Notes: generated by a model from the sequence alone, not told the origin. A stretch of DNA of 64,000 nt from Bacteroidales bacterium (GCA_016290295.1 JAEETJ010000004.1:10546-74545); one strand, 5' to 3'. Positions 21,490 to 57,225 are shown, counted from the stretch's first letter. Made by a program: numbers and translations.

Positions 21490-21510
21490 ACGAGACATTT
21501 CAATTGATAG

Positions 21511-21542
21511 AAAAGGTCGGCAGAATCTGCCGACCTTTTTTT
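21511..21542 (+). terminator. rho-independent terminator; marks the left edge of the accessory island
   Basis: aaaaGGTCGGCAGaatCTGCCGACCttttttt: 9-bp GC-rich stem, 3-nt loop, T-run. Confidence 0.85.
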
Positions 21543-21750
21543 CTTATAAAAACTCCTAAAATTCCAATGGCCATCCTGAAGATTTCTATTGTATCAGAAA
21601 ACACACAATATGTTTCTTTTGCATGTTATCATACAATTTTGTCCACTTTTTGAACGAACGATACATTTTATACAACTCTGATTTTTAGCAAATTAACAAT
21701 AACTTTGCTCTTGATTTTATGATTTGGATAAAATAACTTTGCGGACAAAA
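21543..21750 (+). promoter_or_regulatory. cassette promoter module P1 (repeat family, copy 1 of 6)
   Basis: GTCCACTTT box at 21641, TGATTTTTAGCAAATTAACA core, and -7 box TAACTTTG at 21734-21741 (93 nt after the GTCCACTTT box). The ATG follows at 21757. Confidence 0.7.
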
Positions 21751-21756
21751 AAACAA

Positions 21757-22182
21757 ATGAACTTCACGAACAACAAAACTGGTGTCTTTGGACCCATATA
21801 TAACCAATTTCAAAACCAGCCGAAACTGGCTATTAAGCATTTACTTAAAGTACAAAACGGAGAGTGTCCCAAAGCACTGTTTCGCGAAGATATCGGATTT
21901 ATTGATATAGTATGGGGCAAAAATGATCCAAAAACCAACAAAGGATATGGTTTGAAACATATTGTGGAAAAACATGGTCAAAACATAAAATAATTGGGCT
22001 TTGAAGTTGAGGATTTTATTCCAATTGTGGTACAGTTTGGAAACTTATCCGTGAAGAAATCAGATGATAAGAAAATGATATTGGAAAGTGATACATTTAG
22101 AATAGTCATACAAACAAGGTGGGATAATCAGATCAAAATCTTTTTGCTAACAGCCTTTGATTTAAGAAAAAAGCCTGAATAA
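21757..22182 (+). pseudogene. small nuclease-like gene (PBECR/polyvalent-protein-module-like) interrupted by one in-frame TAA at 21991-21993
   Basis: MNFTNNKTGVFGPIYNQF...IDIVWGKND...GYGLKHIVEKHGQNIK-TAA-LGFEVEDF...IFLLTAFDLRKKPE. The two track ORFs (21724..21993 and 21994..22182) are in the same frame and contiguous. The domain assignment is from memory and is tentative. Confidence 0.5.
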
Positions 22183-22254
22183 ATCAGGCTAATTCTTGCA
22201 ATTACCAGGACTGCACTCATTGGTAATTTTACGATAAAGATACTCCCTTTACCA
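22166..22254 (-). ncRNA. candidate small antisense RNA (promoter + ~85-nt transcript + terminator)
   Basis: Minus strand: TTTG, then 19 nt, then TATCTTTG (-7 box, plus-strand coordinates 22261-22268). An internal hairpin AATTACCA/TGGTAATT follows. The terminator AGCCTGA-tttat-TCAGGCT+T6 straddles the stop codon of the plus-strand gene. No expression data. Confidence 0.3.
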
Positions 22255-22368
22255 ACGAGGCAAAGATACAAAAAAAATCATACGAAGCAAAAAATTTCTT
22301 TTCATTTTTTTCACCATGATAGGAAAATAGGTAAAAGATCTTTACCGACATTTTCAGCCTTGCAAAAC

Positions 22369-22560
22369 TTGACGGAATTAGCGGCGGAGCCGCAATCACC
22401 GTATAGACCCAGGCAGAGCGCCTATACCACCCCACCCTCGTAGAGGGTTCAACATCAACAGGCATGGGTATAACACCGTTATTTCTGCCGCGGTGCGGGT
22501 ATCGTGTGCACCGAAGCATTTTGGGCAAGGACACCGCGGAGGGGGGGAGCGTTTGAGACG
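22369..22560 (-). repeat. B module copy 1: ~190-nt GC-rich multi-hairpin element
   Basis: About 90% identical to 23341-23530. Hairpins: GCGGC-gga-GCCGC, ACCCTC-gta-GAGGGT, GTATAG...CTATAC, and an 8-bp stem CCGCGGTG/CACCGCGG (22487-22494 / 22532-22539) enclosing TGCTTCGGTGCA (minus-strand reading). Confidence 0.75.
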
Positions 22561-22775
22561 AAGAAGACACAATAAAAACTCCCAAAATTTCTGCTGCCAT
22601 TCTAAAGATTTTTGGAGCAGCAAAAAACACACAATATGCCTTTTTAGCATGTTATCGTATTATTTCGTCCACTTTTTGAACGAACGTTGCATTTTATACA
22701 ATACTGATTTTTAGCAAATTAACAATACTTTCATACTTGATTTTATGATTTGGATAAGATAACTTTGCAAATAAA
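22561..22775 (+). promoter_or_regulatory. cassette promoter module P2
   Basis: GTCCACTTT at 22667; -7 box TAACTTTG at 22760-22767 (93-nt spacing). Near-identical to P1 and P3. Confidence 0.7.
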
Positions 22776-22788
22776 AAAATTCAAAAAC

Positions 22789-22804
22789 TTGATATATATA
22801 TCAA
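22789..22804. promoter_or_regulatory. perfect 16-bp palindrome TTGATATATATATCAA (candidate operator)
   Basis: Read directly. It lies between P2 and a second -7-like box TAATTTTG (22814-22821), upstream of the small gene + XRE pair. Confidence 0.45.
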
Positions 22805-22828
22805 TTATTTTTATAATTTTGCAACGTC

Positions 22829-23066
22829 ATGAAAAAGAAAAGCACATTGGATAAAATATCCGAATCTCAAAAGGCTACACTCTACTCCATCAGCTTCGAG
22901 AAAGATGGCACAACTGAATTTGAGAAGTTTGTGTCAGAATTCGAGATGATATGTGATAGATTTACAACGGTTTGAAAAAATCTTAAAAGAAAACATTGAG
23001 AAAGGCTATATCAGCGTTCACGAAAAAGAACTTATAGGTACAGACAATATCATTTTCGAAATATGA
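22829..23066 (+). pseudogene. small gene upstream of XRE regulator, apparently frameshifted (+1) near 22970
   Basis: Frame 1 gives MKKKSTLDKISESQKATLYSISFEKDGTTEFEKFVSEFEMICDRFTTV*. The +1 frame continues KILKENIEKGYISVHEKELIGTDNIIFEI*, and its TGA overlaps the ATG of the next gene (ATGA at 23063-23066). Confidence 0.4.
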
Positions 23067-23332
23067 AAAACAAACAAGAATGGTTCAAATCAAAAGTGAA
23101 GCAAGTCCCTCCGGAAATCATGACGGAAGTACAGCTTTCCGCTGGCATTATTGCACGCATTGACAGAATTCTCAAAGAAAAAAACATGACCCAGCGCGAT
23201 TTGGCGAAGAAATTAGGGAAAAACGAAGCCATGGTATCACGATGGACCACAGGGTTCCCTAATTTCACACTTCGTACCTTAGCACAGATTTCCACCGCCT
23301 TGGGCGAACCGCTTATCAAATTGGCAGAGTAG
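23063..23332 (+). CDS. XRE-family helix-turn-helix protein (antitoxin-like regulator)
   Basis: 89-aa ORF. The HTH reads MTQRDLAKKLGKNEAMVSRWTTGFPNFTLRTLAQISTALG. Confidence 0.75.
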   Translation: MKNKQEWFKSKVKQVPPEIMTEVQLSAGIIARIDRILKEKNMTQRDLAKKLGKNEAMVSRWTTGFPNFTLRTLAQISTALGEPLIKLAE

Positions 23333-23340
23333 CCTTCCTG

Positions 23341-23530
23341 AGTTTGACGGAATTAGCGGCGGAGCCGCAATCACCGTATAGACCCAGGCAGAGTGCCTAT
23401 ACCACCCTACCCTCGTAGAGGGTTCAACATCAACAGGCATGGGTATAACTCCGTTATTTTTGCCGCGGTGTAGGTGTCGTGTGCACCGAAGCATTGGGCA
23501 AGGACACCGCGGAAGGAGGTCGATTGAGCT
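23341..23530 (-). repeat. B module copy 2
   Basis: Same hairpin set as B1. Differences include a 2-nt indel (cattttgggc vs cattgggc) and scattered substitutions. Confidence 0.75.
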
Positions 23531-23750
23531 GAAGAAGACACCCCAAAAACTCCCAAAATTTCTGCTGCCATTCCGAAGATTTCTGGAGTAGCAAAAAACA
23601 CACAATATGCATTTTTAGCATGCTATCGTATTATTTCGTCCACTTTTTGAACGAACGATACATTTTTTCATAACACTGATTTTTAGCTAATTAACAATAC
23701 TTTCACGCTTGATTTTAAGATTTGGATAAGATAACTTTGCGGACAAAAAA
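23531..23750 (+). promoter_or_regulatory. cassette promoter module P3
   Basis: GTCCACTTT at 23638; -7 box TAACTTTG at 23732-23739 (94-nt spacing). Confidence 0.7.
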
Positions 23751-23809
23751 ACTTATAGTAAAAAAAACAGTAAGTTATAACATATTGCAACTTTTTTGTA
23801 TTTTTGCCA

Positions 23810-24148
23810 ATGGAAAGAAAAATAATCACTTATGGAAATTATTTTAGATCATTTTTAAAGACGCTATGTGAAAATGTTCGATGGAAATTGGATTATGTAT
23901 TGGATATGTTGAAGACCCAAAAGCGGCTCAACTCGAGGTTCGTCAAACCTATAAGAGAAGGGATTTTTGAATTAAGAATAGAATGGGAAGGTGACATATA
24001 TCGGGTTTTCTTCATTTTCGACGAGGGTAACATTATCGTTCTTTTTAATGGATTCCAAAAAAAAACAAGAAGAACTCCGACTTCAGAGATAGAAAAAGCA
24101 ATAACGATAAAAAAGGAATACTATGAATACAAAAGAAAACAAAATTAA
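23810..24148 (+). CDS. type II toxin, RelE/ParE superfamily (HigB / phage Gp49-like)
   Basis: The ORF is trimmed to the ATG at 23810. The IREGIFELRIEWEGDIYRVFFIFDEGNIIVLFNGFQKKTRRTP pattern is typical of Gp49/HigB-like toxins. It is followed by an overlapping XRE antitoxin gene. Confidence 0.75.
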   Translation: MERKIITYGNYFRSFLKTLCENVRWKLDYVLDMLKTQKRLNSRFVKPIREGIFELRIEWEGDIYRVFFIFDEGNIIVLFNGFQKKTRRTPTSEIEKAITIKKEYYEYKRKQN

Positions 24149-24428
24149 GAGCTATGACACTATACTTGACGAAAGGTATGGTGCCGTTGGCACTCCCGAA
24201 AGGGAAGCTTTCCGCAAAGAAGCATACGCCTACTATATGGGCCAAGTAATACGTGAAGCCCGTCGGGAGGAAAAGATAACCCAGTCCGAACTAGGCAAAC
24301 GGATTGGCGCCAATAAAAGCTACATATCAAGAGTCGAAAACGGACTCATCGACCCCACCATTTCAACCATTTATAGCATTATTACGGCTTTGGGATTAAG
24401 AATTGAGATTGTGCGCCCTGTAGGTTAA
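24123..24428 (+). CDS. HigA-like XRE-family antitoxin
   Basis: 101-aa ORF with HTH ITQSELGKRIGANKSYISRVENGLIDPTISTIYSIITALG. It overlaps the toxin 3' end by 26 nt. Confidence 0.75.
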   Translation: MNTKENKIKSYDTILDERYGAVGTPEREAFRKEAYAYYMGQVIREARREEKITQSELGKRIGANKSYISRVENGLIDPTISTIYSIITALGLRIEIVRPVG

Positions 24429-24510
24429 CATAAACAGCCACAGGTCATTGTTTTTGCAGTTATAATTAGACACCTTTTGGGTATTCTATTTGATGAAATT
24501 CAAACAGCGA

Positions 24511-25086
24511 TTATAAGTCATCTATTGCCGAACTGCGAACCTTTTCGGAATTGGCCTTGTCGTAATAGCCCAATCGAACAGCAGCTGTATTATATTTTGT
24601 CCCAGAAATAATAGACAGCTCAATGTTACCTAGATCTGTAGAGAATATGGTATACCATTCATATTCACCATCTTTTAATGCATACATGATAAGAGCATTA
24701 TCATTCCCATGATAGTCTATAAAACGTTCTCTATTGTCCGATGGAATTCCATATTTTTCAGTCAACATGGATTTTAGAGTTTCATAATCACTTAAAACCG
24801 ATGTCCATGTATCTTTATCAGGAAACAACACTGTGATATGACTCACAACATCGAGGTTTTTCAACGTGGATACCCCAACAACACAATTTTTATATCCCGC
24901 GAAATCACCAGTCAATATGGATATTCCATCTTGAGTTCCCTCGTAGTGGAATCCGGCTTTTACCATGGCATTGGTATATTCCTGTAAGGTGCCATCAATG
25001 GGCACACCCTTAAAAGAAAGATGTTGTTGGGCAAATGCAGTACCTGCAATAATGAGGCAAACGAAAAGGATGATTATTTTTTTCAT
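24511..25086 (-). CDS. secreted hypothetical protein
   Basis: The ORF is trimmed to MKKIIILFVCLIIAGTAFAQQ (signal peptide). No recognisable domain. It starts 28 nt downstream of the radical SAM gene on the same strand. Confidence 0.55.
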   Translation of the reverse strand: MKKIIILFVCLIIAGTAFAQQHLSFKGVPIDGTLQEYTNAMVKAGFHYEGTQDGISILTGDFAGYKNCVVGVSTLKNLDVVSHITVLFPDKDTWTSVLSDYETLKSMLTEKYGIPSDNRERFIDYHGNDNALIMYALKDGEYEWYTIFSTDLGNIELSIISGTKYNTAAVRLGYYDKANSEKVRSSAIDDL

Positions 25087-25114
25087 AGGGCTGTTGGTTT
25101 TTTCAATGTTATGT

Positions 25115-27178
25115 TTATTTATGTTTATATCGTTTATTTGCATGTGCAGGATCTTTGTCATATTCTTTTTTCATCAAATAAAGTTCTGTATTAGACTCTA
25201 TTAGGGATTTTCTGTCATTTTTATAAAAAGATAATAATTCCAAAACCAAAGGATTACAGAATCGTTCGTTATCGTTCTCAAAATTATTTTGATGAATATA
25301 TTCTTTAACTTCTTCCCACTCATTTGATGGAAGTATATTTTCACATTTTTTGAAGCAAGTCCACCAGGAATAAACAGAAAAATGTTCCAAACTATAACCC
25401 AATACTCTTTTTGCAGTCTCTATACCTCTTTCAAGGCCAAGCCATTCAAAGAAAAAACGATAAATAATCATCGTTTCAGGCATTTCAAGCAATTGATGAT
25501 ATTCATTTATATCTTTGCCAAAAGCTTTCTCAAAAAAAGATGTGCCTCGCCCAATCTTGCCCTTGGTGCTATTTAATATGGCTTGAACGGCACGAATATA
25601 TTTTCTATTCCAATATTCTCCAATATAGTCTCGATTATGGGAAAAATCCTCTTTCATCTCATCGTTTTTGCGAATAGGATGGAATTTCATCGGGAAGGAA
25701 TATATACTTATTCCAAGAGTATCGCATAAATCCACATTAATCCTTAAACGCTCATATAAACTGTCTGGATGGTCTTTGTAATTATATAGCAAGTAATTTG
25801 AAAAATCTTTTATTCCTGCATCTTTACACATACGAATTGCCTCACAATATTCGACCTTAGTATGTAGATTATCAAAGGCTATGCGAACGGGACGAATGGC
25901 GATCTGTCCTAACAATCTGGCTTTTTCAGGTGTAAACAATCGAGCATCTAAACCTTGATTAAAATCAACAAAACGAAGTTTACCTTTCCCAGGCTGATAA
26001 TACTTTTTGCCCACATCTTTCAGTTCATCGTATGCAGCAAGAATATTTTCCTTTGTCGCTGAATGTAATTTGTTAATATGATATTTTTGGAACAATATTT
26101 TGTATGCGAGATATGATTCTTCTCTGTTTTTCAACTTATTATAAAGTTCCATTAATAGTCTTTGTGATTTTCGAACATAAGCACGATCATTAACACCTTT
26201 TTGAAGATTATTTATACTTAATCTCAATAAATCCGGTTGCACAAATTTCTCACCCTTAGCGAACCCACAATCCTTAATTTCTTGAATAATTTTATCAAAA
26301 TGATTGGATGCCAAAACATTGTTGTCCATTAAAAGCAGATCTTTTTGTTCACCGTATTTTTTTCGGACATTGTCTATCCGAATTTTTAAAGGGATATAAT
26401 CTTGATAAATAGGCTCTAGAGTTTTTACAGCGCAAAACGCACAATTCCTTATACAACCACGTGTAGTGTATCGATAATACGCATTAGACATAGGATACTG
26501 ATAATCTATCTCATCAAGAATAGAATAGTCTAGTTCTAATTCATCAATAGGAATAGTATTATCCAGATCTAAATCTCCAGGTCGTAGAATCCCGACATGG
26601 ATCCCACCTGGTTTACCATGTTTATGAAGTTTCAAACCCGTAGCTATTGACAATTCATGAGGTTGGATTGAGGCAAGTACCCCTCCAACCATAAGGTTAC
26701 TGTTTTTCTTAACCAAAAATTTTGCGAATTCGACGGTCTCTACAGTGATGTCCCAATAAAATGTGAAGAGAGTCGTCACACAAACGACGTCCCACTCTCG
26801 TTCTCGAGGATGTTTCCAAATTCCTTTCCAATAATAGTCTTTGTATTCAATGAGTTTGGAATATAAAAGAATTGATAATTCAGAACTCTCAAGTTCTAAT
26901 TTGTCAATATACTCTTTGCGTTTTGTACGAATAAATTGAATAACAAACTCTTTTTTTAAATACCATTCAACAGAAGAATCAATCTGGGAAAAAGCATTGA
27001 TACACTTATCAGCAATACGCTCAATCACAAATTGTTTCAAGTCGCCTTTATAAAACACAACTTCATCTCCCACCATTTTGTAGTAAGTAGAGATTTTCAT
27101 CAAACCTACTGGAGGAAACTTATTTGCATAATTAGGTTCAATAAGCAGTACTTTCCGTTTCTTTTTTTGCCTTGTCAT
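25115..27178 (-). CDS. radical SAM enzyme with N-terminal B12-binding-like (Rossmann) domain and long C-terminal extension
   Basis: 687-aa ORF with a CX3CX2C cluster (TTRGCIRNCAFCAV). The N-terminal KVLLIEPNY..PPVGLMKISTYYK..GDEVVFYKGD...VVCVTTLFTF...LMVGGVLAS resembles class B rSAM cobalamin-domain topology. There is no SPASM-type Cys cluster and it is not viperin-like. Its start lies 1 nt after the upstream gene stop. Confidence 0.75.
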   Translation of the reverse strand: MTRQKKKRKVLLIEPNYANKFPPVGLMKISTYYKMVGDEVVFYKGDLKQFVIERIADKCINAFSQIDSSVEWYLKKEFVIQFIRTKRKEYIDKLELESSELSILLYSKLIEYKDYYWKGIWKHPREREWDVVCVTTLFTFYWDITVETVEFAKFLVKKNSNLMVGGVLASIQPHELSIATGLKLHKHGKPGGIHVGILRPGDLDLDNTIPIDELELDYSILDEIDYQYPMSNAYYRYTTRGCIRNCAFCAVKTLEPIYQDYIPLKIRIDNVRKKYGEQKDLLLMDNNVLASNHFDKIIQEIKDCGFAKGEKFVQPDLLRLSINNLQKGVNDRAYVRKSQRLLMELYNKLKNREESYLAYKILFQKYHINKLHSATKENILAAYDELKDVGKKYYQPGKGKLRFVDFNQGLDARLFTPEKARLLGQIAIRPVRIAFDNLHTKVEYCEAIRMCKDAGIKDFSNYLLYNYKDHPDSLYERLRINVDLCDTLGISIYSFPMKFHPIRKNDEMKEDFSHNRDYIGEYWNRKYIRAVQAILNSTKGKIGRGTSFFEKAFGKDINEYHQLLEMPETMIIYRFFFEWLGLERGIETAKRVLGYSLEHFSVYSWWTCFKKCENILPSNEWEEVKEYIHQNNFENDNERFCNPLVLELLSFYKNDRKSLIESNTELYLMKKEYDKDPAHANKRYKHK

Positions 27179-27179
27179 A

Positions 27180-28712
27180 TCAAGCCAAATCTTTAACCAC
27201 TTTTTTTCTTAATTCTTCTAAAAGGTCCCTATGTCGCTTGGGGCAATACGCGAACAACAAATCAAATATTCGCTTTGTGATTTCTATATCACTGTTTGAC
27301 ATTACCTCTTTTAGGGATTCATACGGATCAGTTGGTTTCAACAAATTATTCGTGGAAACGATGTTACTTTTGTCAGATTGCGGCATATCGCTGCCTGTCT
27401 CTATGCTTGAAGCGATAACTTGTTGCTTGTAATGTTCAATTACTTGTTTGGCAGCAACTGATTGTGCATTTTTTGACTTCTCCTTCCGATAAAGCTTGTC
27501 CAGCACAATATTTTTCTCCTCCTGTTTTTCAGGGGTTAGCTTTTCCTCTTTTTCAATTGTATTGATATCTCTGACGACATTCTTAATTTCATTTGCCAAG
27601 TGATATAACTTAACAAGTTCATCAAATTTATCTCTAATGAACGACTTCAATTTCTCAGATTCAGGAGTTGGAGCTAATCCATCTCTAGCACTATTAAGTT
27701 TGATCTTGGGATTCACAATATGTATTTCCCCATAAAAATATTTATTACCTCGTGTTTCGTTTTTGGGAAAGTATTGTGTCAAAATATTAGCATCTCCAAC
27801 CTGTATATTATGTTTGCGTAAACGGAAGCAACTATTTTTATCCGACACAGGAATCTGTTTTGAGAAAGGTGTGTTTGCATACCATCCCCATGCCAACAAA
27901 CCGTATTTCTCATCTTCAAACTTGAAATACTCCAATCTTAAAATATCATCGCCGGTCCCTTCAATTTTTAACCCATATTTTTTCTTTAGAGAAATGCCAT
28001 TGTTGACCGATATTTGGAAAAAACCAACTTTCTGGTGTAAATCTCTATACTCATCGTGAACACAAGTATCAACCAATTGATTCTTAAAAGGCACGGAATA
28101 ATCAACTGGTGCAACTTCCTTGAGATAATCTGATATAACACACTCATCTAACAATTCTGGATAATCAGGGTGGATATTTTCAAGAGTTACAATAAAATAG
28201 TGTTTTGAAGCTTCTTCTTCGTATAGTTTCAAATCTGTAGTCTTATCAATCACTTCCGTTGCTGTAGAGTGGTCTGAATCATCATCTAGAATGTTTTTTA
28301 TTTTATCAATATCAAAGACTATTTCAGACGCCTTATTTTCGCCTTTAAAAGACGTCTTGAAAGAAAGTTTTTTACAAAAATATCCGCCGACCAGTCTTCC
28401 AATGCCAAATTGTCCAGCTGAAGTCTCTCCATCTTTTGAAGAGTCTGCTATATCAAGCAACACCGGTTCCACCTTGTCTATAGATACTCCTGTTCCATTA
28501 TCTTCAATGGTAATTATCTTGTCAGTTTTATTGATAGTGATAGAAATCCTTCCATCAGTTATCTTTGACAAGACACCACTTTGTACCGCATCATTTATTG
28601 CATCCCGTGAATTCTGTATGTATTCTCGATAAATCAATTTTGAATCTCCATACATTTGGAACATAAGCATGGAAATAAGATTCTTACCGACTTTTGATTT
28701 ATGCTCTGTCAT
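27180..28712 (-). CDS. GHKL-superfamily ATPase, Hsp90/HtpG-N-terminal-like (MORC-like conflict-system ATPase)
   Basis: 510-aa ORF. It has the N-box LIYREYIQNSRDAINDAV, the G1 box ITIEDNGTGVS and the G2 box GQFGIGRLVGGYF. The C-terminal half is helical and charged. Confidence 0.75.
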   Translation of the reverse strand: MTEHKSKVGKNLISMLMFQMYGDSKLIYREYIQNSRDAINDAVQSGVLSKITDGRISITINKTDKIITIEDNGTGVSIDKVEPVLLDIADSSKDGETSAGQFGIGRLVGGYFCKKLSFKTSFKGENKASEIVFDIDKIKNILDDDSDHSTATEVIDKTTDLKLYEEEASKHYFIVTLENIHPDYPELLDECVISDYLKEVAPVDYSVPFKNQLVDTCVHDEYRDLHQKVGFFQISVNNGISLKKKYGLKIEGTGDDILRLEYFKFEDEKYGLLAWGWYANTPFSKQIPVSDKNSCFRLRKHNIQVGDANILTQYFPKNETRGNKYFYGEIHIVNPKIKLNSARDGLAPTPESEKLKSFIRDKFDELVKLYHLANEIKNVVRDINTIEKEEKLTPEKQEEKNIVLDKLYRKEKSKNAQSVAAKQVIEHYKQQVIASSIETGSDMPQSDKSNIVSTNNLLKPTDPYESLKEVMSNSDIEITKRIFDLLFAYCPKRHRDLLEELRKKVVKDLA

Positions 28713-28724
28713 AACACTCTGATT

Positions 28725-30377
28725 TTAGCCATTAGGAAATTGCTTGTATGTTGGACGTGGAAATTTAATATTTACCAAAGACCGCAGTGCTGGATTGGAA
28801 ATAATATATTCACCTGGGGAAAGTCTAGTCATCATATTTTGGTATACTTTCGGAATATACCTATAATCAGACTTTGAAACTTCGATTGCATTCGTGCGAC
28901 CATACGCATGCGTAGCACAGTTTCCTTTTACTCTATCGTGTATTGCGCTTCGAAATTGCTCAACCGAAAAAAGTATGATTCCTAAAGAACGACCGCGTTC
29001 GGCAATATCTAGCAATTGCCGTAGAATAGGCGAGTTTTTAGGTACATCGTTTGAAGCATATTTGTTCAATTCATCCACAAACAAAATCACTTTTTCAGGG
29101 ATATCATCACGTTCTGCACCCAATTTCATATCATAAATGGCACGTGCCACACTACCGAATACAAAACTTTGAGTATTCTCGTCTAGGCGGGCAATATCAA
29201 TTACCATTACTTGACCTGCCTTCAAATTATTTTGTATTTCATCTGTAATGTCAACATCCAAATTTGTATGTGTTTTGGCAAATACATCATTTCTAATAGC
29301 TTTACTTATACAACGTTTGAATTTTCTCCAACTAGTAACTTGTATCTCTTTGTTTTTATTGTCTTTATTTCCAGCTTGTGTTGATTTGCTAATAGCATCT
29401 TCTAATGACGACCACTTGTCAATTCCTTGAAAAGCGCCCTCCTTGTTAATGACGAAATTTACGCAACTTTCCAATGTACCAGAGCTATCATCCTCATTGG
29501 CAAGTAGTAAATCTAATTTATCCTGTGATTTTTCAAATGTAAATTTGTATGTAAAAGCTTTTTTATTCTCCTTCTGTCTTTTAACATCGTCTGGTTTGGC
29601 ATAAGTTTGCACATTTTCAACAATACTATCTTTACTATATGGATAATAGTATTTGACATTTTTAAATGGTTCAGCCGACAAACCTAAATCCATATAAATT
29701 TTTTTATCCATATCCGATAAATCTGTATTTGCCTCGTCTATCGCCATCAAGTCCCTTCCTTTTACATTGAAAAAAACGAAAGCAGCAGAACTCCCATCTT
29801 CAAGCCTAAATTTGTGTTGAATAGCATTAAGTAAAAACATGGAGTATGATGTTTTTGCTGCTAAGCCTGAAATACCAGAAATATTAAGATGTGCTCCTTC
29901 TGGACCGATAAGGAAATGAGAGTCCAGTTCCACTTTTACTTTACATGTTTCATCTCCTTGATACATTTGCAAATACCCACATACGAGAGGATGTTTCACA
30001 TCTTTTAACCCAAGAGCAACTTTAATATCCTCTTCATCACAAAGAGAAACCTGTTTGCCGTCTAATACAGGCGTATAAACATCTCCTGTATTACAAACAA
30101 CACGAGCTTTTACATAATTCATTCCCAAATGATTCATATAGCCAACGACTTCTTTAGTATCTCCAAAATCGCTAGAAATATAACTAGTAAAATGACTTGA
30201 TGAATCTGTTACATGGTTAATTTCTTCAACCACACCATATGTAACAGAATCTAACTCGTGTGTAACTTTGACGACATCAAAAGGACTGAGAATACATCGT
30301 TTGTCAGTCCAAAAATAAAACTCGTCAATAGTTGATGGCATATTTTCAGTGGCAGATACTTTACCAATAATTTTCAT
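28725..30377 (-). CDS. HerA-like FtsK/HerA-superfamily ATPase (HAS-barrel + P-loop, DUF87-type)
   Basis: 550-aa ORF. It has an N-terminal HAS-barrel-like segment (KIIGKVSATEN...FDVVKVTHELDSVTYGVVEEINHV), an atypical P-loop (ISGISGLAAKTSY), Walker B (VILFVDELNKY) and a distal ERGRSLGIILFSVEQ segment. Confidence 0.7.
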   Translation of the reverse strand: MKIIGKVSATENMPSTIDEFYFWTDKRCILSPFDVVKVTHELDSVTYGVVEEINHVTDSSSHFTSYISSDFGDTKEVVGYMNHLGMNYVKARVVCNTGDVYTPVLDGKQVSLCDEEDIKVALGLKDVKHPLVCGYLQMYQGDETCKVKVELDSHFLIGPEGAHLNISGISGLAAKTSYSMFLLNAIQHKFRLEDGSSAAFVFFNVKGRDLMAIDEANTDLSDMDKKIYMDLGLSAEPFKNVKYYYPYSKDSIVENVQTYAKPDDVKRQKENKKAFTYKFTFEKSQDKLDLLLANEDDSSGTLESCVNFVINKEGAFQGIDKWSSLEDAISKSTQAGNKDNKNKEIQVTSWRKFKRCISKAIRNDVFAKTHTNLDVDITDEIQNNLKAGQVMVIDIARLDENTQSFVFGSVARAIYDMKLGAERDDIPEKVILFVDELNKYASNDVPKNSPILRQLLDIAERGRSLGIILFSVEQFRSAIHDRVKGNCATHAYGRTNAIEVSKSDYRYIPKVYQNMMTRLSPGEYIISNPALRSLVNIKFPRPTYKQFPNG

Positions 30378-30378
30378 A

Positions 30379-31581
30379 TTAAAACATATTTAGAATTATA
30401 TTTTCATTAACATAATGCGATTTGCAAAAAGATTCAGTTAAGAAAATAGGGTACAAATGATTTGCCCAACGTGAATCTTTCCCAAAACACACGGGATATG
30501 CTTCTCGGATTAACTGTGAACTTATTGTGTTAATTAGTTCCGTTTCAAAAGGGCTATCATCCATTATCACCATTTCGCATTTAATGATATCTGAGAAATG
30601 TGAATCTCGAAAATCACTATTGCGCAGTCTGACATACCATACCGCAAATGCTTGAACAAAACCGTCTTTATTTTGTGATTCATAACGATACACTTTAGTA
30701 CGTTCAAATGGCTTTAACTCGGCAATCGTTCTTGAAAGTCGATTTCCTTCATAATCAGAGAGAAGAGCGGGATCAAATAATTTGGAGACACCGACAACAT
30801 GTGTGTAATTATCTTTAAAGTTATTGAACTGCGTTTTATCAAGGTTTGAAAACCTTGGATTATATTCCAAAGAACCATCTTTAATTAGCCAATGCTCATC
30901 ATCTAGTTTGTTTTCTTGGCAAAGATTTGCCACAAGAAGTTGCTCTTCATCCATCATTTCATTTTGAATCTTAGCTACCGCACGATTCTTATAATTGTCT
31001 TTGTCACGATCCTCACTTGACCCATCAGTTTTGTATAGCAATATCTTATCAATTGTCAAATTTCTATCTGAAATGAATTTGGACTTTAACATTTCAGTAT
31101 TCAAACTTTCGCAAAATGCACGACAAAAGTTCTCACCTCCATCATCATCATCAAAATCATCAGGCATTGCAATGACAATTTTACTACAAAGAGCACCCCT
31201 TTTAACAAGGGATGCATTCTTAATACAATCCCGACTTTTCCGTTCACAACAACCCACTATCACTTGTCCTGCAATTATGGGGAAAATTTTCTTACCAATG
31301 GCAATATCATCTACCTTGTATGTATGGCGTGAACCATCAAGAAAAAAACTAAATATTGGAGGGGGCACAACAGTATGACTTAGTAATTTGGACAAATCGA
31401 CTGTTTTTTTTCGTGTTCTATCTGTTTCTGCAAAGTCACTCTTTGTAGAAATAGAGGCAACCTTATCATCATAATTATAAGCTATGGAATCGTTGTTCAC
31501 TGTGTCCAGTGATAATTTCTTCGTCTTGTAACAATGATATTTGCCATTACCCTGCAACTCTATGAAATCTAATATTTTCAT
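30379..31581 (-). CDS. NurA-like nuclease (RNase H-fold), partner of the HerA-like ATPase
   Basis: 400-aa ORF. The motif order resembles NurA: FLDGSRH, then ..CCER.., then WLIKDGSLEY, then VVGVSKLF, then LYPIFLTESFCKSHY. Its stop lies 1 nt before the HerA-like start. The assignment is motif-based and needs profile or structure confirmation. Confidence 0.5.
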   Translation of the reverse strand: MKILDFIELQGNGKYHCYKTKKLSLDTVNNDSIAYNYDDKVASISTKSDFAETDRTRKKTVDLSKLLSHTVVPPPIFSFFLDGSRHTYKVDDIAIGKKIFPIIAGQVIVGCCERKSRDCIKNASLVKRGALCSKIVIAMPDDFDDDDGGENFCRAFCESLNTEMLKSKFISDRNLTIDKILLYKTDGSSEDRDKDNYKNRAVAKIQNEMMDEEQLLVANLCQENKLDDEHWLIKDGSLEYNPRFSNLDKTQFNNFKDNYTHVVGVSKLFDPALLSDYEGNRLSRTIAELKPFERTKVYRYESQNKDGFVQAFAVWYVRLRNSDFRDSHFSDIIKCEMVIMDDSPFETELINTISSQLIREAYPVCFGKDSRWANHLYPIFLTESFCKSHYVNENIILNMF

Positions 31582-31954
31582 ATTCTTTCAAACTGTTTTT
31601 TCCCCACCCCAAAAAAAATTTATTTCCTATCAAAGTTCCGGAAAGACTTGCAACATAAATAAAGTAACTCCACGCCTAAGCGCAAACATCACTTTTTATA
31701 GAGCTTTTTCAAAACTTTCCAGTTTCTAATATCACAAAAAAAATGCTTTTTTATACTAAGTGTTTTAAAGAGATTGTTTTCTTCTATGGGCAATTATTAT
31801 TTGTTAATGATTAAATTCGTTTTGTGCATCATATGCGTTGCAAAAGTAACATAAATTTCTAAAAAAAACAACAAAAAACTATCTTTTACAACGGTTTTCC
31901 ATTGTTTTTGTTTTGTTGCAAAGTATTGTTATTACTTTGTTGGCATGTTCGCGA

Positions 31955-32305
31955 CTTTCGCGGCAGGCTCATCCCATCATCATAGCAAGCAACACCCGCA
32001 CCGCGGGAGGAGTGATGATGTCGCTCCTACCCCACACTGCGGCCTGCGGCCTTGTGAGGGGTTACTAAAAGGTCGCCTCTGCGAGGCTCAATTGGTACGG
32101 CTTCGCCGTAATATACATACCATTACCCCGCCCTTCGGGCACCCGTTGGAGGCGTTGTCCCTTGTCCGTTCCAGGGGCTTTGCCCCTGTCTGTACCAGGG
32201 GTTTCACCCCTGTCTATGGTCTTTTCGGCCCTACGGGCCTTACTCCGCCCTGTCGATGCGTCCCATCAATTGTCCACCAACGGACGCATGCGATGCGTCC
32301 CTATA
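31955..32305 (+). repeat. C module copy 1: mosaic of GC-rich hairpins (REP/BIME-like)
   Basis: It begins with CTTTCGCGGCAGGC. Contents: CCAGGGGctttgCCCCTG, CAGGGGtttcaCCCCTG, GGCCCtacGGGCC and GGACGCATgcgATGCGTCC. Confidence 0.75.
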
Positions 32306-32401
32306 TATCATATTTATATCAAAAATTTCCGCATGGAAATTTTTACCTTAATACCGCTTTTGCGAATTACTTGCTTAGAAAAACGAGGAGTATGGAGAGC
32401 T

Positions 32402-32543
32402 AAAAAGCCGACTGTTTGAGCTTGCTTTTGCAAGCGAGTTTCGGCTTTTTAGGCTACAGACGACCGTTTTTTAGCGAGCATATTCGCATGCGGAAAAGCC
32501 ACTTTTCTTTGCCCCTTTCTTTTGTGGCTGCAAAAGAAAGGGG
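32402..32543. other. two strong nested hairpins between C1 and P4
   Basis: AAAAAGCCGA...(GCTTGCttttGCAAGC)...TCGGCTTTTT at 32402-32450, and CCCCTTTCTTTTG-tggctg-CAAAAGAAAGGGG at 32512-32543. Confidence 0.7.
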
Positions 32544-32559
32544 AAGAAAAAAAAATCAC

Positions 32560-32700
32560 AACATCTTTTTTGCAACTTTTCGCTCACTTTCGTCCACTTT
32601 TTGACCCGAAAGTGCAAATTGTCAAACCATTGATTTTTAGCAAATTAAAAATTATTTTGCCATTGATTTTTCAGTTCAGGTGTTGTACCTTTGCAGAAAT
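32560..32700 (+). promoter_or_regulatory. cassette promoter module P4
   Basis: GTCCACTTT at 32592; -7 box TACCTTTG at 32686-32693 (94-nt spacing); ATG at 32721. Confidence 0.7.
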
Positions 32701-32720
32701 CAAAAACTAAATAAAAACTT

Positions 32721-33296
32721 ATGGAAAAGAATCGTCCTCAAGTGGGGAGCGGGCCATCCAATTCGGACTCCCCATCAGACAATGTCAATTCTTCTATTAC
32801 GAGTAGCCCTACCGATACCCTTCGTACCTCGAAGAATCCGAGTGCAAAAATAATAAAAAATCCAACACCAATATTGTCAAAAATAAGGAAATTTAAAAAC
32901 AATGACTTCGTCCTAAATTACTCTAAAGGATGGAATGGTGTATTAGTTGGTTTACGAAAACTCCTGCAACTAAATTATGAAGGCGGTTCAAACTATGCAA
33001 ATTACGAAACTCAAAAGGGGATTTTATCATTAAGGCTTTCTGACCATAATGCAAATGGCAACAATTTTAACACAGACCACATCAATATAAGTGTTTATGT
33101 TGCACTGATTGAATATCAGCATGTTGAGACAAGGGTAAAATACATAGAATATAGAATCACGAAAGAAACGTATAATAAATACCCCAAAAAAGTTGTATAT
33201 GAAATTGTAACTGCAGTTGAACGAGCATTGAGTGGTGAAGTGTTTGAATTAAACAATGACATTGCTGAGAAGACGCCTTATGAAATAGAAATCTAG
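32721..33296 (+). CDS. hypothetical protein (disordered Ser/Pro/Asn-rich N-terminus, globular C-terminal ~130 aa)
   Basis: 191-aa ORF directly served by P4. No domain recognised. It has a notable LSLRLSDHNANGNNF segment. Confidence 0.55.
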   Translation: MEKNRPQVGSGPSNSDSPSDNVNSSITSSPTDTLRTSKNPSAKIIKNPTPILSKIRKFKNNDFVLNYSKGWNGVLVGLRKLLQLNYEGGSNYANYETQKGILSLRLSDHNANGNNFNTDHINISVYVALIEYQHVETRVKYIEYRITKETYNKYPKKVVYEIVTAVERALSGEVFELNNDIAEKTPYEIEI

Positions 33297-33377
33297 GGCC
33301 TGACAAGTCTGCTTAAACTCCGCCATGACAATGTGTGCGGGAGCAAGATCGAAATCATCCTTTGCTAAAACAACACA

Positions 33378-33754
33378 CTTTCGCGGCAGGCTCATCCCAT
33401 CATCATAGCTGGCGACACCTGTGCCGCGAGATGGGTATGGGGCATTTTGTACCAGGGGGTTCACCCCTGGCTATGGTCTTTTCGGCCCTACGGGCCTTAC
33501 TCCGCCCAGATGCCACATCCCTACAATTGTACACCAACGGACGCACGCGATGCGTCCCTACAGACTAATCCAGCGGACACATAGAGAAATGCCTACGGCT
33601 GCCGTGATACGACAGCCCTACATGATGTGCGTGCGGACGCGGACGCATGCGATGCGTTCCTACACATAATACCCTGCGGCATCAGGGCGTAAAACTTCCG
33701 AAATTTCAGTTCCACCCTTCCTATCTTCAACCTGGATTCCAAAACCTCCACCTT
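33378..33754 (+). repeat. C module copy 2
   Basis: The anchor hairpin CGCGGCA...TGCCGCG is followed by CCAGGGG/CCCCTGG, GGCCC/GGGCC and three hairpin+CCCTACA units (minus strand reads GTAG+hairpin). About 95% identical to C3 over ~250 nt, estimated by eye. Confidence 0.8.
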
Positions 33755-33892
33755 CTTTTTTTTGCAACTTTTCGAACAATCTTGTCCACTTTCTGATCCA
33801 AAAATACAATTTATTAAACTATTGATTTTTAGCAAATTAACACACAATTTACTATTGATTTTTCTGTACTGATATCGTAACTTTGTGGGCAA
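33755..33892 (+). promoter_or_regulatory. cassette promoter module P5
   Basis: GTCCACTTT at 33784; -7 box TAACTTTG at 33878-33885 (94-nt spacing); ATG at 33906. Confidence 0.7.
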
Positions 33893-33905
33893 AAACAAAG
33901 TACTT

Positions 33906-34898
33906 ATGGCAAAGAAAAAGGATAAGAACGAACAACAAACTATCAAACCAGTCACAAATTGTGACCAGTTCCCAGAGGTAGTGGAAAATTTCCACCACTT
34001 CAAAGAAAACGAATCTATACTAAGTGTTCATGATATTGAAAAACTAATCGTAACGCTCAGAGGCGTACAAGTTATTATTGATCGTGATTTGGCATTTCTA
34101 TATCAGGAAGAAGTCAAACAAATGAACCGTCAGGTGAAGCGTAATATTGAACGTTTCCCTGCAGATTTCATGTTTCAACTGACCAAGGAAGAGTATGCTA
34201 GTTTGAAGTGCCATTTTGGCACTTCAAACGAAAGGGGTGGTGATCGTCGTGCATTACCCTATGCGTTTACCCAACAAGGTATTGGTATGCTCAGCGGGCT
34301 GCTTCGTAGTCAAGTGGCAATTGAGACCAACATCAAGATAATGCGAGCCTTTGTGGGTATGCAACGATACATCGCCGCTAGCATGCAGCTATTCCAGCGG
34401 TTAAACATCGTAGAGCTCCAACAATTGGAGGCCCGACAATGGATGAAAGATACGGAAAACAAAATTGAAAGCATTCTTGAAAGAATCGAAGAGAATTCCC
34501 CAAAAATGCTTCCAGAGCAAATTTTCCACACCGGCTGTGTATGGGACGCATGGGCTTACGTTTCTGACCTCGTTCGAAGCGCCAAAAGCCGAATCATCCT
34601 CATTGATAATTTCGTTGATGACAGGGTGCTTACCATGCTCACCAAACGTACCGAGGGCGTTACGGCTACCATCCACACCCGTTACAGTGAGCAGTTCCTC
34701 ACTGACTTGAAGAAGCACAACGAACAGTATCCTGAAATCCAATTCATCCAGCTCTCTCATCGCCACCACGACCGTTTCTTGATTATCGACGACAAGGTTC
34801 ATTTCCTCGGTGCCAGCGTAAAGGACATGGGCACCGGCCTCTGTGCCATTACAGAGATGAAAGTTGATCCTGAAACCATTTTGGGGCTGTTAAAATAA
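33906..34898 (+). CDS. ORF6N (KilA-N-related) DNA-binding domain protein fused to a PLD-like domain with HxR variant motif
   Basis: The ORF is trimmed to MAKKKDK. ORF6N core: LRGVQVIIDRDLAFLYQEEVKQMNRQVKRNIERFPADFMFQLT...LPYAFTQQGIGMLSGLL. C-terminal HDRFLIIDDKVHFLGASVKD fits the HxKxxxxD(x6)G spacing with R in place of K. Confidence 0.7.
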   Translation: MAKKKDKNEQQTIKPVTNCDQFPEVVENFHHFKENESILSVHDIEKLIVTLRGVQVIIDRDLAFLYQEEVKQMNRQVKRNIERFPADFMFQLTKEEYASLKCHFGTSNERGGDRRALPYAFTQQGIGMLSGLLRSQVAIETNIKIMRAFVGMQRYIAASMQLFQRLNIVELQQLEARQWMKDTENKIESILERIEENSPKMLPEQIFHTGCVWDAWAYVSDLVRSAKSRIILIDNFVDDRVLTMLTKRTEGVTATIHTRYSEQFLTDLKKHNEQYPEIQFIQLSHRHHDRFLIIDDKVHFLGASVKDMGTGLCAITEMKVDPETILGLLK

Positions 34899-34964
34899 CG
34901 ACCTGTTATTAGTACCGACGCTGTGCAGGGCAAGGCCGCCACCTCCCTCTGCTACAGCAACAGC

Positions 34965-35361
34965 CTTTCGCGGCAGGCAAGTTCCGTCATCAAAGCCAGT
35001 GTCCCTTGTGCCGCGAGGTGGGTATGGGGCATTTTTTACCAGGGGGTTCACCCCTGTCTATTCCAGGGGCTTTGCCCCTGTCTGTATTCTTTTCGGCCCT
35101 ACGGGCCTGATTAAGCCATAACACCGCATCCCTACAATTGTTCACCGACGGACGCATGCGATGCGTCCCTACAGACTAATCCAGCGGACACATAGAGACA
35201 TGCCTGCGGCTGCCGTGATACGACAGCCCTACATGATGTGCACGCGGATGCGGACGCATGCAATGCGTCCCTACACATAATACCCTGCGGCATCAGGGCG
35301 TAAAACCTCCGAAATTTCAGTTCCTCTCTCCCCTACTTCAGCTTGGATTCCAAAACCTCCA
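34965..35361 (+). repeat. C module copy 3
   Basis: Same unit order as C2, with an extra CCAGGGGctttgCCCCTG unit. Confidence 0.8.
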
Positions 35362-35505
35362 CCTTCCTTTTTTTTGCAACTTTTCGCTCACTTTTGTCCA
35401 CTTTCTGACCCAAAAGTTCAATTTATTAAACTATTGATTTTTAACAAATTAACAATTACTTTTCCATTGATTTTATGATTTCAACATTGTAACTTTGCGA
35501 GCGGA
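35362..35505 (+). promoter_or_regulatory. cassette promoter module P6
   Basis: GTCCACTTT at 35396; -7 box TAACTTTG at 35490-35497 (94-nt spacing); ATG at 35530. Confidence 0.7.
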
Positions 35506-35529
35506 AACAAACCATTAATTTTAAATACT

Positions 35530-36132
35530 ATGGAAAACAATTTACTTCCCGAAGTGGAAAAGAAAATTATCACCCTCAGAAACCAACAAGTGATATTGGA
35601 TTCAGATGTGGCTGATTTGTATGGTGTGGAAACCAAAGAAATTAATCAAGCAGTAAAAAACAATCCCGAGAAATTTCCCAAAGGATACATTTTTCAACTT
35701 GAAGATCAAGAATTTAGAAATTTGCGGTCAAAAAATTTGACCACAAAATTTTCAAAAACACGACAACTTCCTAAAGCTTTTACCGAAAAAGGACTTTACA
35801 TGTTAGCCACCATTCTCAAAAGTCCTAAAGCGGTGGAAACCACCATTGCCATTGTGGAAGCATATGCCAAATTAAAGGAACTATCACGGGTGATTGTGGA
35901 AGTTCCACATAAAGAGGAGGACAGCATGGAACAAAAGGTTCTCCTACATCGCGGAGGACAGTTAGTGGAAGACATCATGAGCAACATCCTTCCCAAACAA
36001 AGCAGTGAAACCTCCTTCGAACTAAACCTCGCCATGTTCAAATTCAAACATTCAGTAAAACGGGAGAACGAAGACAAAATCAACAGACTTGAAGCGGAAC
36101 TCGCTGAATTAAAGAAGAAAATCAAAACCTAA
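35530..36132 (+). CDS. ORF6N domain-containing protein (short form with C-terminal coiled coil)
   Basis: 200-aa ORF: LRNQQVILDSDVADLYGVETKEINQAVKNNPEKFPKGYIFQLE...LPKAFTEKGLYMLATILKS. Confidence 0.75.
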   Translation: MENNLLPEVEKKIITLRNQQVILDSDVADLYGVETKEINQAVKNNPEKFPKGYIFQLEDQEFRNLRSKNLTTKFSKTRQLPKAFTEKGLYMLATILKSPKAVETTIAIVEAYAKLKELSRVIVEVPHKEEDSMEQKVLLHRGGQLVEDIMSNILPKQSSETSFELNLAMFKFKHSVKRENEDKINRLEAELAELKKKIKT

Positions 36133-36245
36133 CGCTTCGTCCCTACAATTGTCCACCAACGGACGCATGCAATGCGTCCCTACAGACTAATCTAGCGGAC
36201 ACATAGAGAAATGCCTGCGGCTACCGTGATACGACAGCCCTACAG
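36133..36245 (+). repeat. C module copy 4 (truncated: two hairpin+CCCTACA units); right edge of island
   Basis: cgtCCCTACAattgtccaccaacGGACGCATgcaATGCGTCCCTACAgactaatc...GGCTAccgtgatacgaCAGCCCTACAg. Confidence 0.75.
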
Positions 36246-36540
36246 AAAGTTGGTAAAAAAACTTCATGTCAGCTTGATTTTTTGATCACTTTTTTATCAA
36301 GTTTTCATTGAAATATTCAAACGGACATGTGAAATAACAGAACAAAAAATGTTCTTGTTATATAGAAGAAAAAAGTGACGAAGAAGTTATCTATTTTTTG
36401 ACTATCTTTGCACCCTCAAAATTTAGACCTAAAAATATAATAAAGTTATAATATTTCTAAACTCATAAACTCAAAATTCTAAACCCAAACTTACAAATCA
36501 CCATCATTAATTCTTGTTTTTAATTCTTAACTCCAAAAAT

Positions 36541-37734: not shown

Positions 37735-37790
37735 CAAATTAGTTAATTAGCAAATGTGCAAATTAAATTAAGAATTAAGAACTTTTCATC

Positions 37791-56028: not shown

Positions 56029-57225
<1,197 letters not shown>

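Follow-up and report, generated by a model that had tools for sequence, protein, structure and literature searches.

Integron cassettes are promoterless, are expressed from a common promoter (Pc) and end in an attC site (R''-L''...L'-R', with the motif GTTRRRY), and they stand next to the integrase gene intI (product IntI) and an attI site; clusters of attC sites without an integrase (CALINs) have reportedly been found as well. Repetitive extragenic palindromic (REP) elements are GC-rich palindromes with a GTAG head, and the gene of their associated Y1 transposase (RAYT) is usually flanked by REPs; REPs, bacterial interspersed mosaic elements (BIMEs) and REPINs are said to be linked with RAYT transposases. 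Closer in host range are the recombinase-associated acquired interbacterial defence clusters (rAID-1) of Bacteroidales, whose defining feature is a gene for a conserved XerD-family tyrosine recombinase that heads the array; their cargo is mostly orphan immunity genes for toxins of the type VI secretion system or other interbacterial toxins, and their intergenic repeats have been likened to those of integrons ("reminiscent of integrons"; Ross et al., 2019; bioRxiv 10.1101/471110). The minimal mobile elements (MMEs) of Neisseria are strain-variable cassettes between core genes whose exchange is attributed to homologous recombination (PMC3787668; PMC3082526), and putative mobile promoters are highly similar promoter-bearing intergenic sequences that stand before genes without mutual homology, whether in one genome or in several (Matus-Garcia, Nijveen and van Passel, 2012; PMC3488235; PMC3575422). 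Here we describe a gene array in a 64,000-nucleotide stretch of DNA from a Bacteroidales bacterium (GCA_016290295.1, JAEETJ010000004.1:10546-74545; hereafter the window, with positions counted from its first nucleotide), in which each forward cassette is headed by a copy of a putative promoter module of ~215 nt, here called P, and GC-rich hairpin modules lie between the cassettes.

The array lies between a DUF1599 gene and a DoxX-like gene. With slightly better than even confidence, we read this interval as a chromosomal hot spot, a defence and toxin–antitoxin island in a clade of uncultured rumen Bacteroidales, made up of promoter-tagged cassettes whose repeated modules act as portable homology. 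The host is an uncultured member of the order from rumen-type metagenomes. The comparison set comprised ~55 fetched loci of relatives (labelled L0nn, with W for the window itself), ~20 kb being inspected around each, and 683 kb of fetched DNA; the relatives' DUF1599–DoxX loci were obtained by exact-protein look-up and come from many independent assemblies. Core homology with relatives stops at 21542 on the left and begins again at 36366 on the right, and two core features mark the edges of the island:

21511-21542, + strand: intrinsic terminator of DUF1599, read from the sequence as GGTCGGCAG-AAT-CTGCCGACC and then T7; left edge
36541-37734, + strand: core MauE/DoxX/AhpC-like gene of the BT_3928 family; right edge

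The flanking core genes include those for a C25 peptidase of the type IX secretion system (T9SS), DUF1599, the BT_3928-family DoxX-like protein, prolyl oligopeptidase, QueH and GlyRS. Neither Pfam scans of the open reading frames (ORFs) of the window nor the gene tables of overlapping contigs contained an integrase, transposase or relaxase, and in the window the 21 kb on the left of the array and the 27 kb on its right are free of recombinase genes. A tRNA-linked island was considered and rejected, there being no tRNA or tmRNA gene in the window.

A profile built from the six P copies (nhmmer) matches the window at exactly six places, all on the + strand, with E-values of 1e-50 to 1e-59, and each of the six co-oriented modules heads a cassette:

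21548-21757, + strand: P1 (nhmmer E 2e-55), with the ATG at 21757 shortly after the TAACTTTG −7 box
22574-22784, + strand: P2 (E 1e-54)
23543-23756, + strand: P3 (E 6e-59)
32493-32711, + strand: P4 (E 2.5e-50)
33688-33902, + strand: P5 (E 3e-54)
35299-35514, + strand: P6 (E 7e-55)

An initial annotation of the window, made from the sequence alone, had named six such modules at these places, and all six were recovered by nhmmer and by a direct-repeat search; its description of the array as forward cassettes with their own copies of a conserved promoter module, separated by structured GC-rich repeats and lacking an integrase nearby, is borne out, as is its statement that integrase, transposase and relaxase genes are absent from the window. 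The 18-nt core of P, TGATTTTTAGCAAATTA, has six good copies and one weak match in the window, where 0.35 are expected by chance. The weak match (three mismatches; 37724-37741) was rejected as a seventh P, as the profile does not detect it; it lies just upstream of the prolyl oligopeptidase gene and probably either arose by chance or is part of an ordinary promoter.

Alignments of 24 and then 49 distinct copies define the anatomy of P. A variable 5' part of ~75 nt, which occurs in a few types, is followed by the invariant blocks TTTTTTGCAACTTTTCG, GTCCACTTTYTGA and TGATTTTTAGCAAATTAACAAT, and then by a −33-like element, TTGATTTT, and the invariant −7 box, ~25–30 nt before the ATG; the final ~65 nt resemble a tandem duplicate of one promoter. 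TAnnTTTG is the −7 consensus of the Bacteroidetes, and a sigma-70 promoter scan is uninformative for a genome of this phylum. A hairpin at the GTCCACTTTYTGA block was rejected: RNAalifold predicts no consensus structure for 24 copies, and a helix drawn by hand is paired in 68% of cells, as against 65.5% in shuffles.

The module recurs well beyond the window's locus. The 683 kb of fetched DNA contain 112 matches to P, each of which heads a co-oriented small gene (the median gap from the end of the P profile to the ATG is 15 nt), and the genes behind P belong to at least nine mutually unrelated families: ORF6N proteins with or without a PLD domain together with RhuM-PLD proteins, KilA-N, DUF1016/YhcG, PBECR1, two LPD3 proteins, HigBA, a gene for a 159-amino-acid (aa) protein with an XRE gene, and the gene of the window's fourth cassette (gene 4). 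Pattern scans and the contexts of ORF6N homologues placed P-headed cassettes at about eight chromosomal sites in related rumen Bacteroidales, namely beside FtsX-UppP (L017/L019), beside carbamate kinase (L018), in the interval from a Ser/Thr kinase to guanylate kinase (L042-46), between PurH and a thiamine pyrophosphate enzyme (L051-53; a solo cassette), beside DUF1015-UvrC (L054-56), beside dnd-like genes, beside a T9SS protein, and between DUF1599 and DoxX, the locus of the window. A pattern scan of 185,579 species genomes matched two, both of them rumen metagenome-assembled genomes (MAGs) and neither a Bacteroides genome, together with nine JGI metagenome stretches; P thus scanned appears to be restricted to related rumen Bacteroidales. 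It had no match in viral contigs, and neither P nor C (a family of hairpin modules described below) was found in phage and plasmid collections, where the matches were to the ORF6N coding region alone. The proposal that P is the end of an insertion sequence (IS) or a phage or plasmid sequence was rejected on these null results and on the lack of a transposase-linked copy in the 185,579-genome scan. In another lineage, an ORF6N gene of 78% identity stands without P. No tyrosine recombinase, integrase or Y1 transposase was found in the window or at any of the fetched loci; the lone transposase-type gene among those loci, which is of the rve-type DDE kind and stands at the left end of L055, is probably part of an IS.

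Between the same two core genes, relatives differ widely in what they carry. The DUF1599–DoxX interval is hypervariable, ranging from 3.4 kb to more than 15 kb among the fetched loci, and its gene content differs, without mobility genes, among W, L026, L025, L027, L029 and L035. The shortest variant (L026) is a 3.4-kb island of three cassettes, with gene 4, a truncated ORF6N gene and an ORF6N gene; L025 has ApeA-HEPN and HsdS/HsdM on the reverse strand, KilA-N, a frameshifted gene 4 (58-aa ORF) and two ORF6N genes; L027/L030 have Dnd genes, KilA-N, gene 4 and two ORF6N genes; and L035/L036/L038 and the MAG RUG14804 have an intact PBECR1 gene, the 159-aa gene with XRE and HigA, and then AbiH and a type I restriction–modification (R-M) system. 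The large cargo on the reverse strand is thus swapped between strains, a four-gene operon in the window taking the place of AbiH with type I R-M, of Dnd, or of ApeA-HEPN with HsdMS. Across these variants a P module stands before every forward cassette and never before the large reverse-strand cargo. Several variants recur in independent assemblies (L027/L030, L031/L032 and L035/L036/L038/L011), and the polymorphism of cassette presence and absence from DUF1599 to DoxX that the initial annotation had anticipated is therefore found across both strains and assemblies. The left part of the array, non-coding DNA included, is 96–98% identical between genomes whose adjacent core is 85–90% identical, and an AT-rich hairpin block at 32300-32560 is 95–97% identical in L010, L013, L016, L027 and L032; together these values indicate recent transfer or conversion between lineages.

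The P copies themselves record recombination. They are mosaics with crossovers in three or more different conserved blocks: in L026 a hybrid P joins a 5' half of the B type to a 3' half of the P4 type, with the switch inside a conserved 22-mer, and in L022 a hybrid switches at GTCCACTTTTTGA. The 5' ~75 nt reassort relative to the 3' part, which is linked to the cargo, four-gamete violations occur among the copies, and the 5' type that stands upstream of gene 4 in W differs from the one in L027. L019 equals L017 with one added cassette, the insertion being bounded by a duplicated block of ~394 nt that contains P, a hairpin module of another family (D, below) and 46 further nt; an ORF6N-PLD gene was truncated to 238 aa by being joined to a C unit at a shared CAATTG; and RUG11690 has deletions that end inside genes. 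Because the crossovers fall at several positions, all of them in the longest identical blocks, the pattern in P points to homologous recombination or gene conversion and not to one fixed site used by a single-site recombinase, and the breakpoints as a whole, including breaks inside genes at microhomology, fit homologous or illegitimate recombination. The initial annotation had proposed shuffling by homologous or site-specific recombination with breakpoints inside the modules. The homologous route is supported by the mosaic P copies and their several crossover blocks, an integron-like site-specific one is not; likewise, some breakpoints do lie in P (the L026 hybrid, the reassorted segments), while others lie inside genes at microhomology.

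The ORF6N-PLD genes are also mosaic: between L018 4915-5898 and L019 559-1485, the PLD half and the downstream D and P are ~93% identical, whereas the ORF6N DNA-binding half is less than ~70% identical, suggesting that domains are shuffled or that the sensor domain is under diversifying selection.

Between the cassettes lie the hairpin modules, which differ from P in base composition (51–59% GC in B and C and 28–34% in P, the window average being 44%). The whole window had no match in Rfam at gathering thresholds, so P, B and C do not represent a known RNA family.

22356-22546, + strand: B1, GC-rich structured module (58% GC; consensus fold)
23331-23519, + strand: B2, GC-rich structured module, 93% identical to B1 (consensus fold)
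31945-32310, + strand: C1, REP-like hairpin cluster (this and C2–C4 from a direct-repeat search, with a shared unit)
32300-32560, + strand: AT-rich block with three terminator-like hairpins, which supplies the 5' part of P4
33343-33687, + strand: C2, REP-like hairpin cluster
34930-35298, + strand: C3, REP-like hairpin cluster
36121-36244, + strand: C4, terminal REP-like units

The B element (~170 nt) has a stable consensus fold of −38.8 kcal/mol in which five pairs show compensatory change; it occurs in both orientations (L025 6440-6700, L027 6060-6310 and, inverted, L032 800-1060) and has no Rfam match. It may represent either a structured RNA that has escaped annotation or a DNA element of the REP type. 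C1–C4 have in common a 24-nt unit, GGACGCATGCGATGCGTCCCTACA, with six copies where none is expected. Each C module is a mosaic of short palindromes, each followed by CCCTACA, so that the opposite strand reads GTAG and then the palindrome; the window has 11 copies of the heptamer on its + strand, ten of them in C modules, and none on its − strand. The units take the forms GGACGCATGCGATGCGTCC and GGCTGCCGTGATACGACAGCC, each with CTACA appended. A direct repeat of 300 nt runs across C2/P5 and C3/P6 (33452-33751 and 35063-35362; 88% identity), and these pairs, which the initial annotation called near-identical, are actually ~85–88% identical. Spurious ORFs in the C modules matched two proteins in a database of 5.8 billion proteins. 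C units are absent from the rest of the window (~50 kb), but they are found outside arrays in two places: L028 has a pair of copies with compensatory stem changes in the spacer that separates rpsT from the DAHP synthase gene, and a cluster lies in L057, a second defence island of the same sample, which has no P. The third family, D, serves other arrays, and in L017, L018 and L054-56 the D copy at the end of the array points the opposite way from those inside it. Upstream of each P stands either a hairpin cluster or a hairpin block. Most likely, the clusters act as insulators, terminators or RNA stabilisers.

The spacer between rpsT and the DAHP synthase gene is a second polymorphic spot: the window has a gene for a Fib_succ_major lipoprotein there (45678-46502), and L028 (10620-10920) has instead two REP-like units of the C type and, after them, roughly twelve heptamer repeats (TGCTACC/TACTACC). 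A further module of ~190–260 nt (...CCCATAAGAACAGCTGT...CAAAAGTAGAAAAATTTCC...) lies at L013 2715-2980, L022 389-740 and L057 8700-8900; two genomes have it where the island approaches DoxX, L057 has it in a different island beside PSP1/GldH, and it is one more portable segment at array ends.

Starting from the observed anatomy, distribution and polymorphism of the arrays, their mosaic P copies and the absence of a nearby recombinase, we infer the recombination pathway and the vehicle of transfer between lineages as follows. The unit would be a promoter-tagged cassette, in which the 3' ~140 nt of P travel with the cargo gene and the 5' ~75 nt, together with the preceding GC-rich hairpin cluster (B, C or D), form a spacer. 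Because P and the hairpin clusters are repeated within arrays, between arrays at about eight loci and between related genomes, they would act as portable homology, through which RecA-type homologous recombination or gene conversion could add, remove, truncate and reshuffle cassettes, whether inside one genome or with DNA that enters it, alongside occasional microhomology-mediated deletion. A dedicated integrase would not be needed, and the shared promoter would plausibly put unrelated defence genes under one regulatory input. A bolder form of this proposal is that the arrays constitute a genuine integrase-independent cassette system of a rumen Bacteroidales clade, in which a ~215-nt promoter module and REP-like hairpins serve as an adapter and defence genes are plugged in, swapped and co-regulated at many hot spots and exchanged between species, a functional analogue of the integron that is built on a mobile promoter and works through homologous recombination or an unlinked RAYT- or Xer-type enzyme; we offer it tentatively, as possible and short of probable.

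Several points weigh against the reading of promoter-tagged cassettes recombined through portable homology. The identical blocks in P are short (13–22 nt), which is marginal for RecA-dependent exchange, and template switching or a trans-acting site-specific enzyme may be compatible with blocks of this length. The L026 hybrid is known from one fetched scaffold, and the data consist entirely of metagenome assemblies, in which repeats can give rise to chimeras. The constant presence of a hairpin cluster or block ahead of P could mean that the hairpins are the active sites, and the inverted terminal D copy resembles the terminal inverted repeats of a transposable unit. An unlinked recombinase or RAYT gene may lie beyond the ~20 kb inspected around each locus. 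The promoter activity of P is predicted from consensus elements, and cassettes 2 and 3 each contain a further TAnnTTTG box, separate from that of P, shortly before the ATG.

Some of these points lead to a different explanation, an integron- or REPtron-like system in trans, in which an unlinked enzyme would act on the B, C and D hairpins or on a site in P and move cassettes in a site-specific manner; candidates for it are a RAYT-type Y1 HUH transposase that matches the GTAG-headed units and a XerD-like tyrosine recombinase as in rAID-1. The hairpin units bear the strand-specific signature of REPs, their stems are kept by compensatory changes, they stand at every cassette boundary and are inverted at the ends of D-type arrays; one truncation junction falls exactly at the 5' flank of a C unit (CAATTG), and the arrays move between lineages faster than the core diverges. 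The crossovers, however, lie at several positions inside the AT-rich P and not in the hairpins, the family of hairpin varies from array to array while P stays constant, C units also occur without cassettes, and no attC-like R''/R' motif was recovered; with no recombinase, integrase or Y1 transposase in the window or the fetched loci, apart from the rve-type DDE gene of L055, we regard site-specific movement in trans as rather improbable.

A second explanation is that P is a promoter and operator of a regulon and no more, kept by selection, that turnover of the island proceeds through homologous recombination in the flanking core, and that the mosaic P copies are a by-product. It would account for the canonical Bacteroidetes −33/−7 promoter at the right distance from each ATG, for invariant blocks upstream of it that look like protein-binding sites, for the lack of structure in P according to RNAalifold, and for the exchange of the large reverse-strand cargo without any P. 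Selection on binding sites would not, however, hold the full ~215 nt, spacers included, at 75–95% identity before unrelated genes; direct hybrids, and cassette-sized insertions and deletions bounded by P/D duplications, show that recombination uses P; and array DNA, including its non-coding part, is more conserved than the adjacent core, the opposite of what flank-driven replacement predicts. We therefore think a purely regulatory role for P quite unlikely. An assembly artefact (collapsed or mis-joined repeats) or a static paralogous array from tandem duplication is essentially refuted and very improbable, for although several short contigs are cut off in the PBECR/B1 region and L012 in a P module, and although the ORF6N, ORF6N-PLD and RhuM-PLD cargos are paralogous, the same architecture and its variants recur in many independent assemblies (JGI, NCBI MAGs, ENA and Logan, with scaffolds of up to 940 kb), the cargo families are mutually unrelated and P-headed cassettes occupy about eight unrelated chromosomal sites.

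The promoter-tagged cassettes of the window and its large cargo were annotated with Pfam, PADLOC, PHROGs, NCBIfam and a fold search of AlphaFold2 (AF2) models:

21757-22182, + strand: gene with a PBECR1 nuclease domain, interrupted (Pfam PF18809, E 9e-17)
22829-23332, + strand: cassette 2, a frameshifted remnant of the 159-aa gene (22829-23062) and an XRE-type helix-turn-helix (HTH) gene (23063-23332)
23810-24428, + strand: cassette 3, a Gp49/HigB-like toxin (23810-24148) and a HigA-like HTH antitoxin (24123-24428)
24511-25086, − strand: secreted signal-peptide protein of 191 aa, whose translation shows MKKIIILFVCLIIAGTAFAQQ
25115-31581, − strand: four-gene operon of low GC (~34–35%), without a P module; the swappable large cargo of the island
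32721-33296, + strand: cassette 4, a protein of 191 aa with no known family
33906-34898, + strand: cassette 5, an ORF6N DNA-binding domain with a PLD-fold C-terminal domain (Pfam ORF6N, E 1e-29)
35530-36132, + strand: cassette 6, an ORF6N protein of 200 aa (Pfam E 1e-33; PADLOC PDC-S05, E 6e-74)

Two genes of the initial annotation need correction. Its PBECR-like gene does belong to that family, but it is not intact: it has an in-frame TAA at 21991-21993 and is called as two ORFs in assemblies. The gene is intact (141 aa) in L035, L036, L038 and L043, and the window copy is probably a recent pseudogene. Of the "small gene + XRE", the XRE gene stands (Pfam HTH_3; PADLOC PDC-M64C, E 2e-22) and the small gene proves to be the frameshifted remnant of the 159-aa gene, which has no assigned family and which, in L035, L036, L038, L039 and L041, is intact and overlaps the XRE start; with its XRE partner matching PDC-M64C, the pair may form a two-gene module. 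Cassette 3 matches Pfam PF05973 (E 8e-21) and HTH_3 (E 1e-12) and a PHROG "toxin" family. The protein of cassette 4 has no family match in Pfam, PADLOC, PHROGs or NCBIfam and no similarity to the LPD3 cassettes, and its single-sequence AF2 model (predicted local distance difference test score, pLDDT, 63) has no fold match. Cassette 5 matches the PADLOC candidate PDC-S05 (E 7e-103); its PLD domain, which has no Pfam or PDB match by sequence, is visible through the fold search alone, in which the AF2 model (pLDDT 82) resembles PLD2, NucT, Zucchini and FAM83 and shows the motif H-x-R...D...GAS-x-KD.

On the reverse strand, the gene for the 191-aa secreted protein also adjoins the Dnd cluster in L027/L030, the L027 copy being 90% identical. 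The adjacent operon encodes proteins of 687 aa (weak radical-SAM match), 510 aa (a GHKL/HATPase_c_3 ATPase), 550 aa (weak HerA/mad8 matches) and 400 aa (no recognised family), and no PADLOC or NCBIfam system matches it. Because it occupies the slot that elsewhere holds type I R-M with AbiH, Dnd, or ApeA-HEPN with HsdMS, and matches no system, it is a candidate new defence system. Defence-type matches in the island itself are to PDC-S05 and PDC-M64, and the allelic islands have type I R-M, AbiH, Dnd, ApeA-HEPN and AbiE; the cargo as a whole is predicted to function in defence.

Two other regions of the window deserve mention. Paralogous genes for gingipain-like C25 peptidases with T9SS sorting domains lie at 17042-20929 (+ strand) and 50043-53498 (− strand) and are ~67% identical in DNA over ~1 kb. 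Between the serine dehydratase gene and lon, the stretch 57000-60000 has 36–40% GC and holds two ORFs, 58047-58967 and 58843-59940, that match no Pfam family; a further small accessory insertion may lie here.

If the reading as promoter-tagged cassettes is correct, no dedicated mobility genes are required for defence islands to arise and diversify, and a standard promoter "plug" with repeat "spacers" would make a small defence gene expressible, insulated and recombinogenic at once. One promoter before at least nine unrelated families of defence type offers a concrete hypothesis of co-regulation, and any gene behind P becomes a candidate defence gene, for example those for the 191-aa and 159-aa proteins and for stand-alone LPD3 and PBECR1. 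P and the insulating hairpins could also provide parts for the genetic engineering of rumen Bacteroidales.

Set against the systems outlined at the outset, the array is not an integron or a CALIN, because it has no IntI and no attC sites and its cassettes are not promoterless. It shares with both the stacking of co-oriented cassettes and structured hairpin repeats, and with CALINs the lack of an adjacent integrase; it differs in that each cassette has its own P and the crossovers lie in an AT-rich promoter module. A regular-expression search for attC-like motifs (RYYYAAC-N40-130-GTTRRRY) over 21501-36300, a crude test at the level of the motif, found one chance match, in the ORF6N-PLD coding region, and none in B or C. 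The C units resemble REPs and BIMEs as GC-rich imperfect palindromes of 20–25 nt that have a GTAG head, are strand-specific, form clustered mosaics, show compensatory stem changes and have at least one copy in an unrelated intergenic region; unlike REPs, the copies seen concentrate in defence islands and are not spread through the ~50 kb of core in the window, and three families (B, C and D) fill the same positional role.

Like the Neisseria MMEs, the array occupies a defined site between core genes, has different cassettes in different strains and contains no mobility genes; MMEs rely on conserved flanks and natural transformation, whereas here internal repeats add portable homology and the arrays hold multiple cassettes. 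P resembles the putative mobile promoters in being a homologous promoter-type sequence that stands before at least nine unrelated cargo families in several genomes. Those promoters were described as scattered and mostly reused in pairs, whereas a single ~215-nt module heads every forward cassette here, with 112 matches, and the P arrays would be an extreme and systematic case of the same phenomenon.

The closest described system is rAID-1. Both occur in Bacteroidales as long arrays of co-oriented small genes with repetitive intergenic sequence, GC contrast and strain-variable content. The array of the window is nevertheless not a member, because a XerD-like recombinase and immunity cargo are absent: there is no XerD-family recombinase in the 64-kb window or the ~55 related loci, and the cargo is of the phage-defence and toxin–antitoxin type (PBECR1, XRE, HigBA, ORF6N with or without PLD, KilA-N, DUF1016, LPD3). 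No immunity family was detected among the cargo by Pfam, PADLOC or PHROGs, which are general libraries and not the dedicated set of immunity hidden Markov models of Zhang et al. A full-text search of the literature returned no description of a promoter-tagged, hairpin-spaced cassette architecture. If our reading is right, the integron-like theme of rAID-1 extends in Bacteroidales to a recombinase-less form, and the system as a whole is a variant of the known integrase-less or repeat-bounded cassette systems represented by rAID-1, the Neisseria MMEs and mobile promoters.

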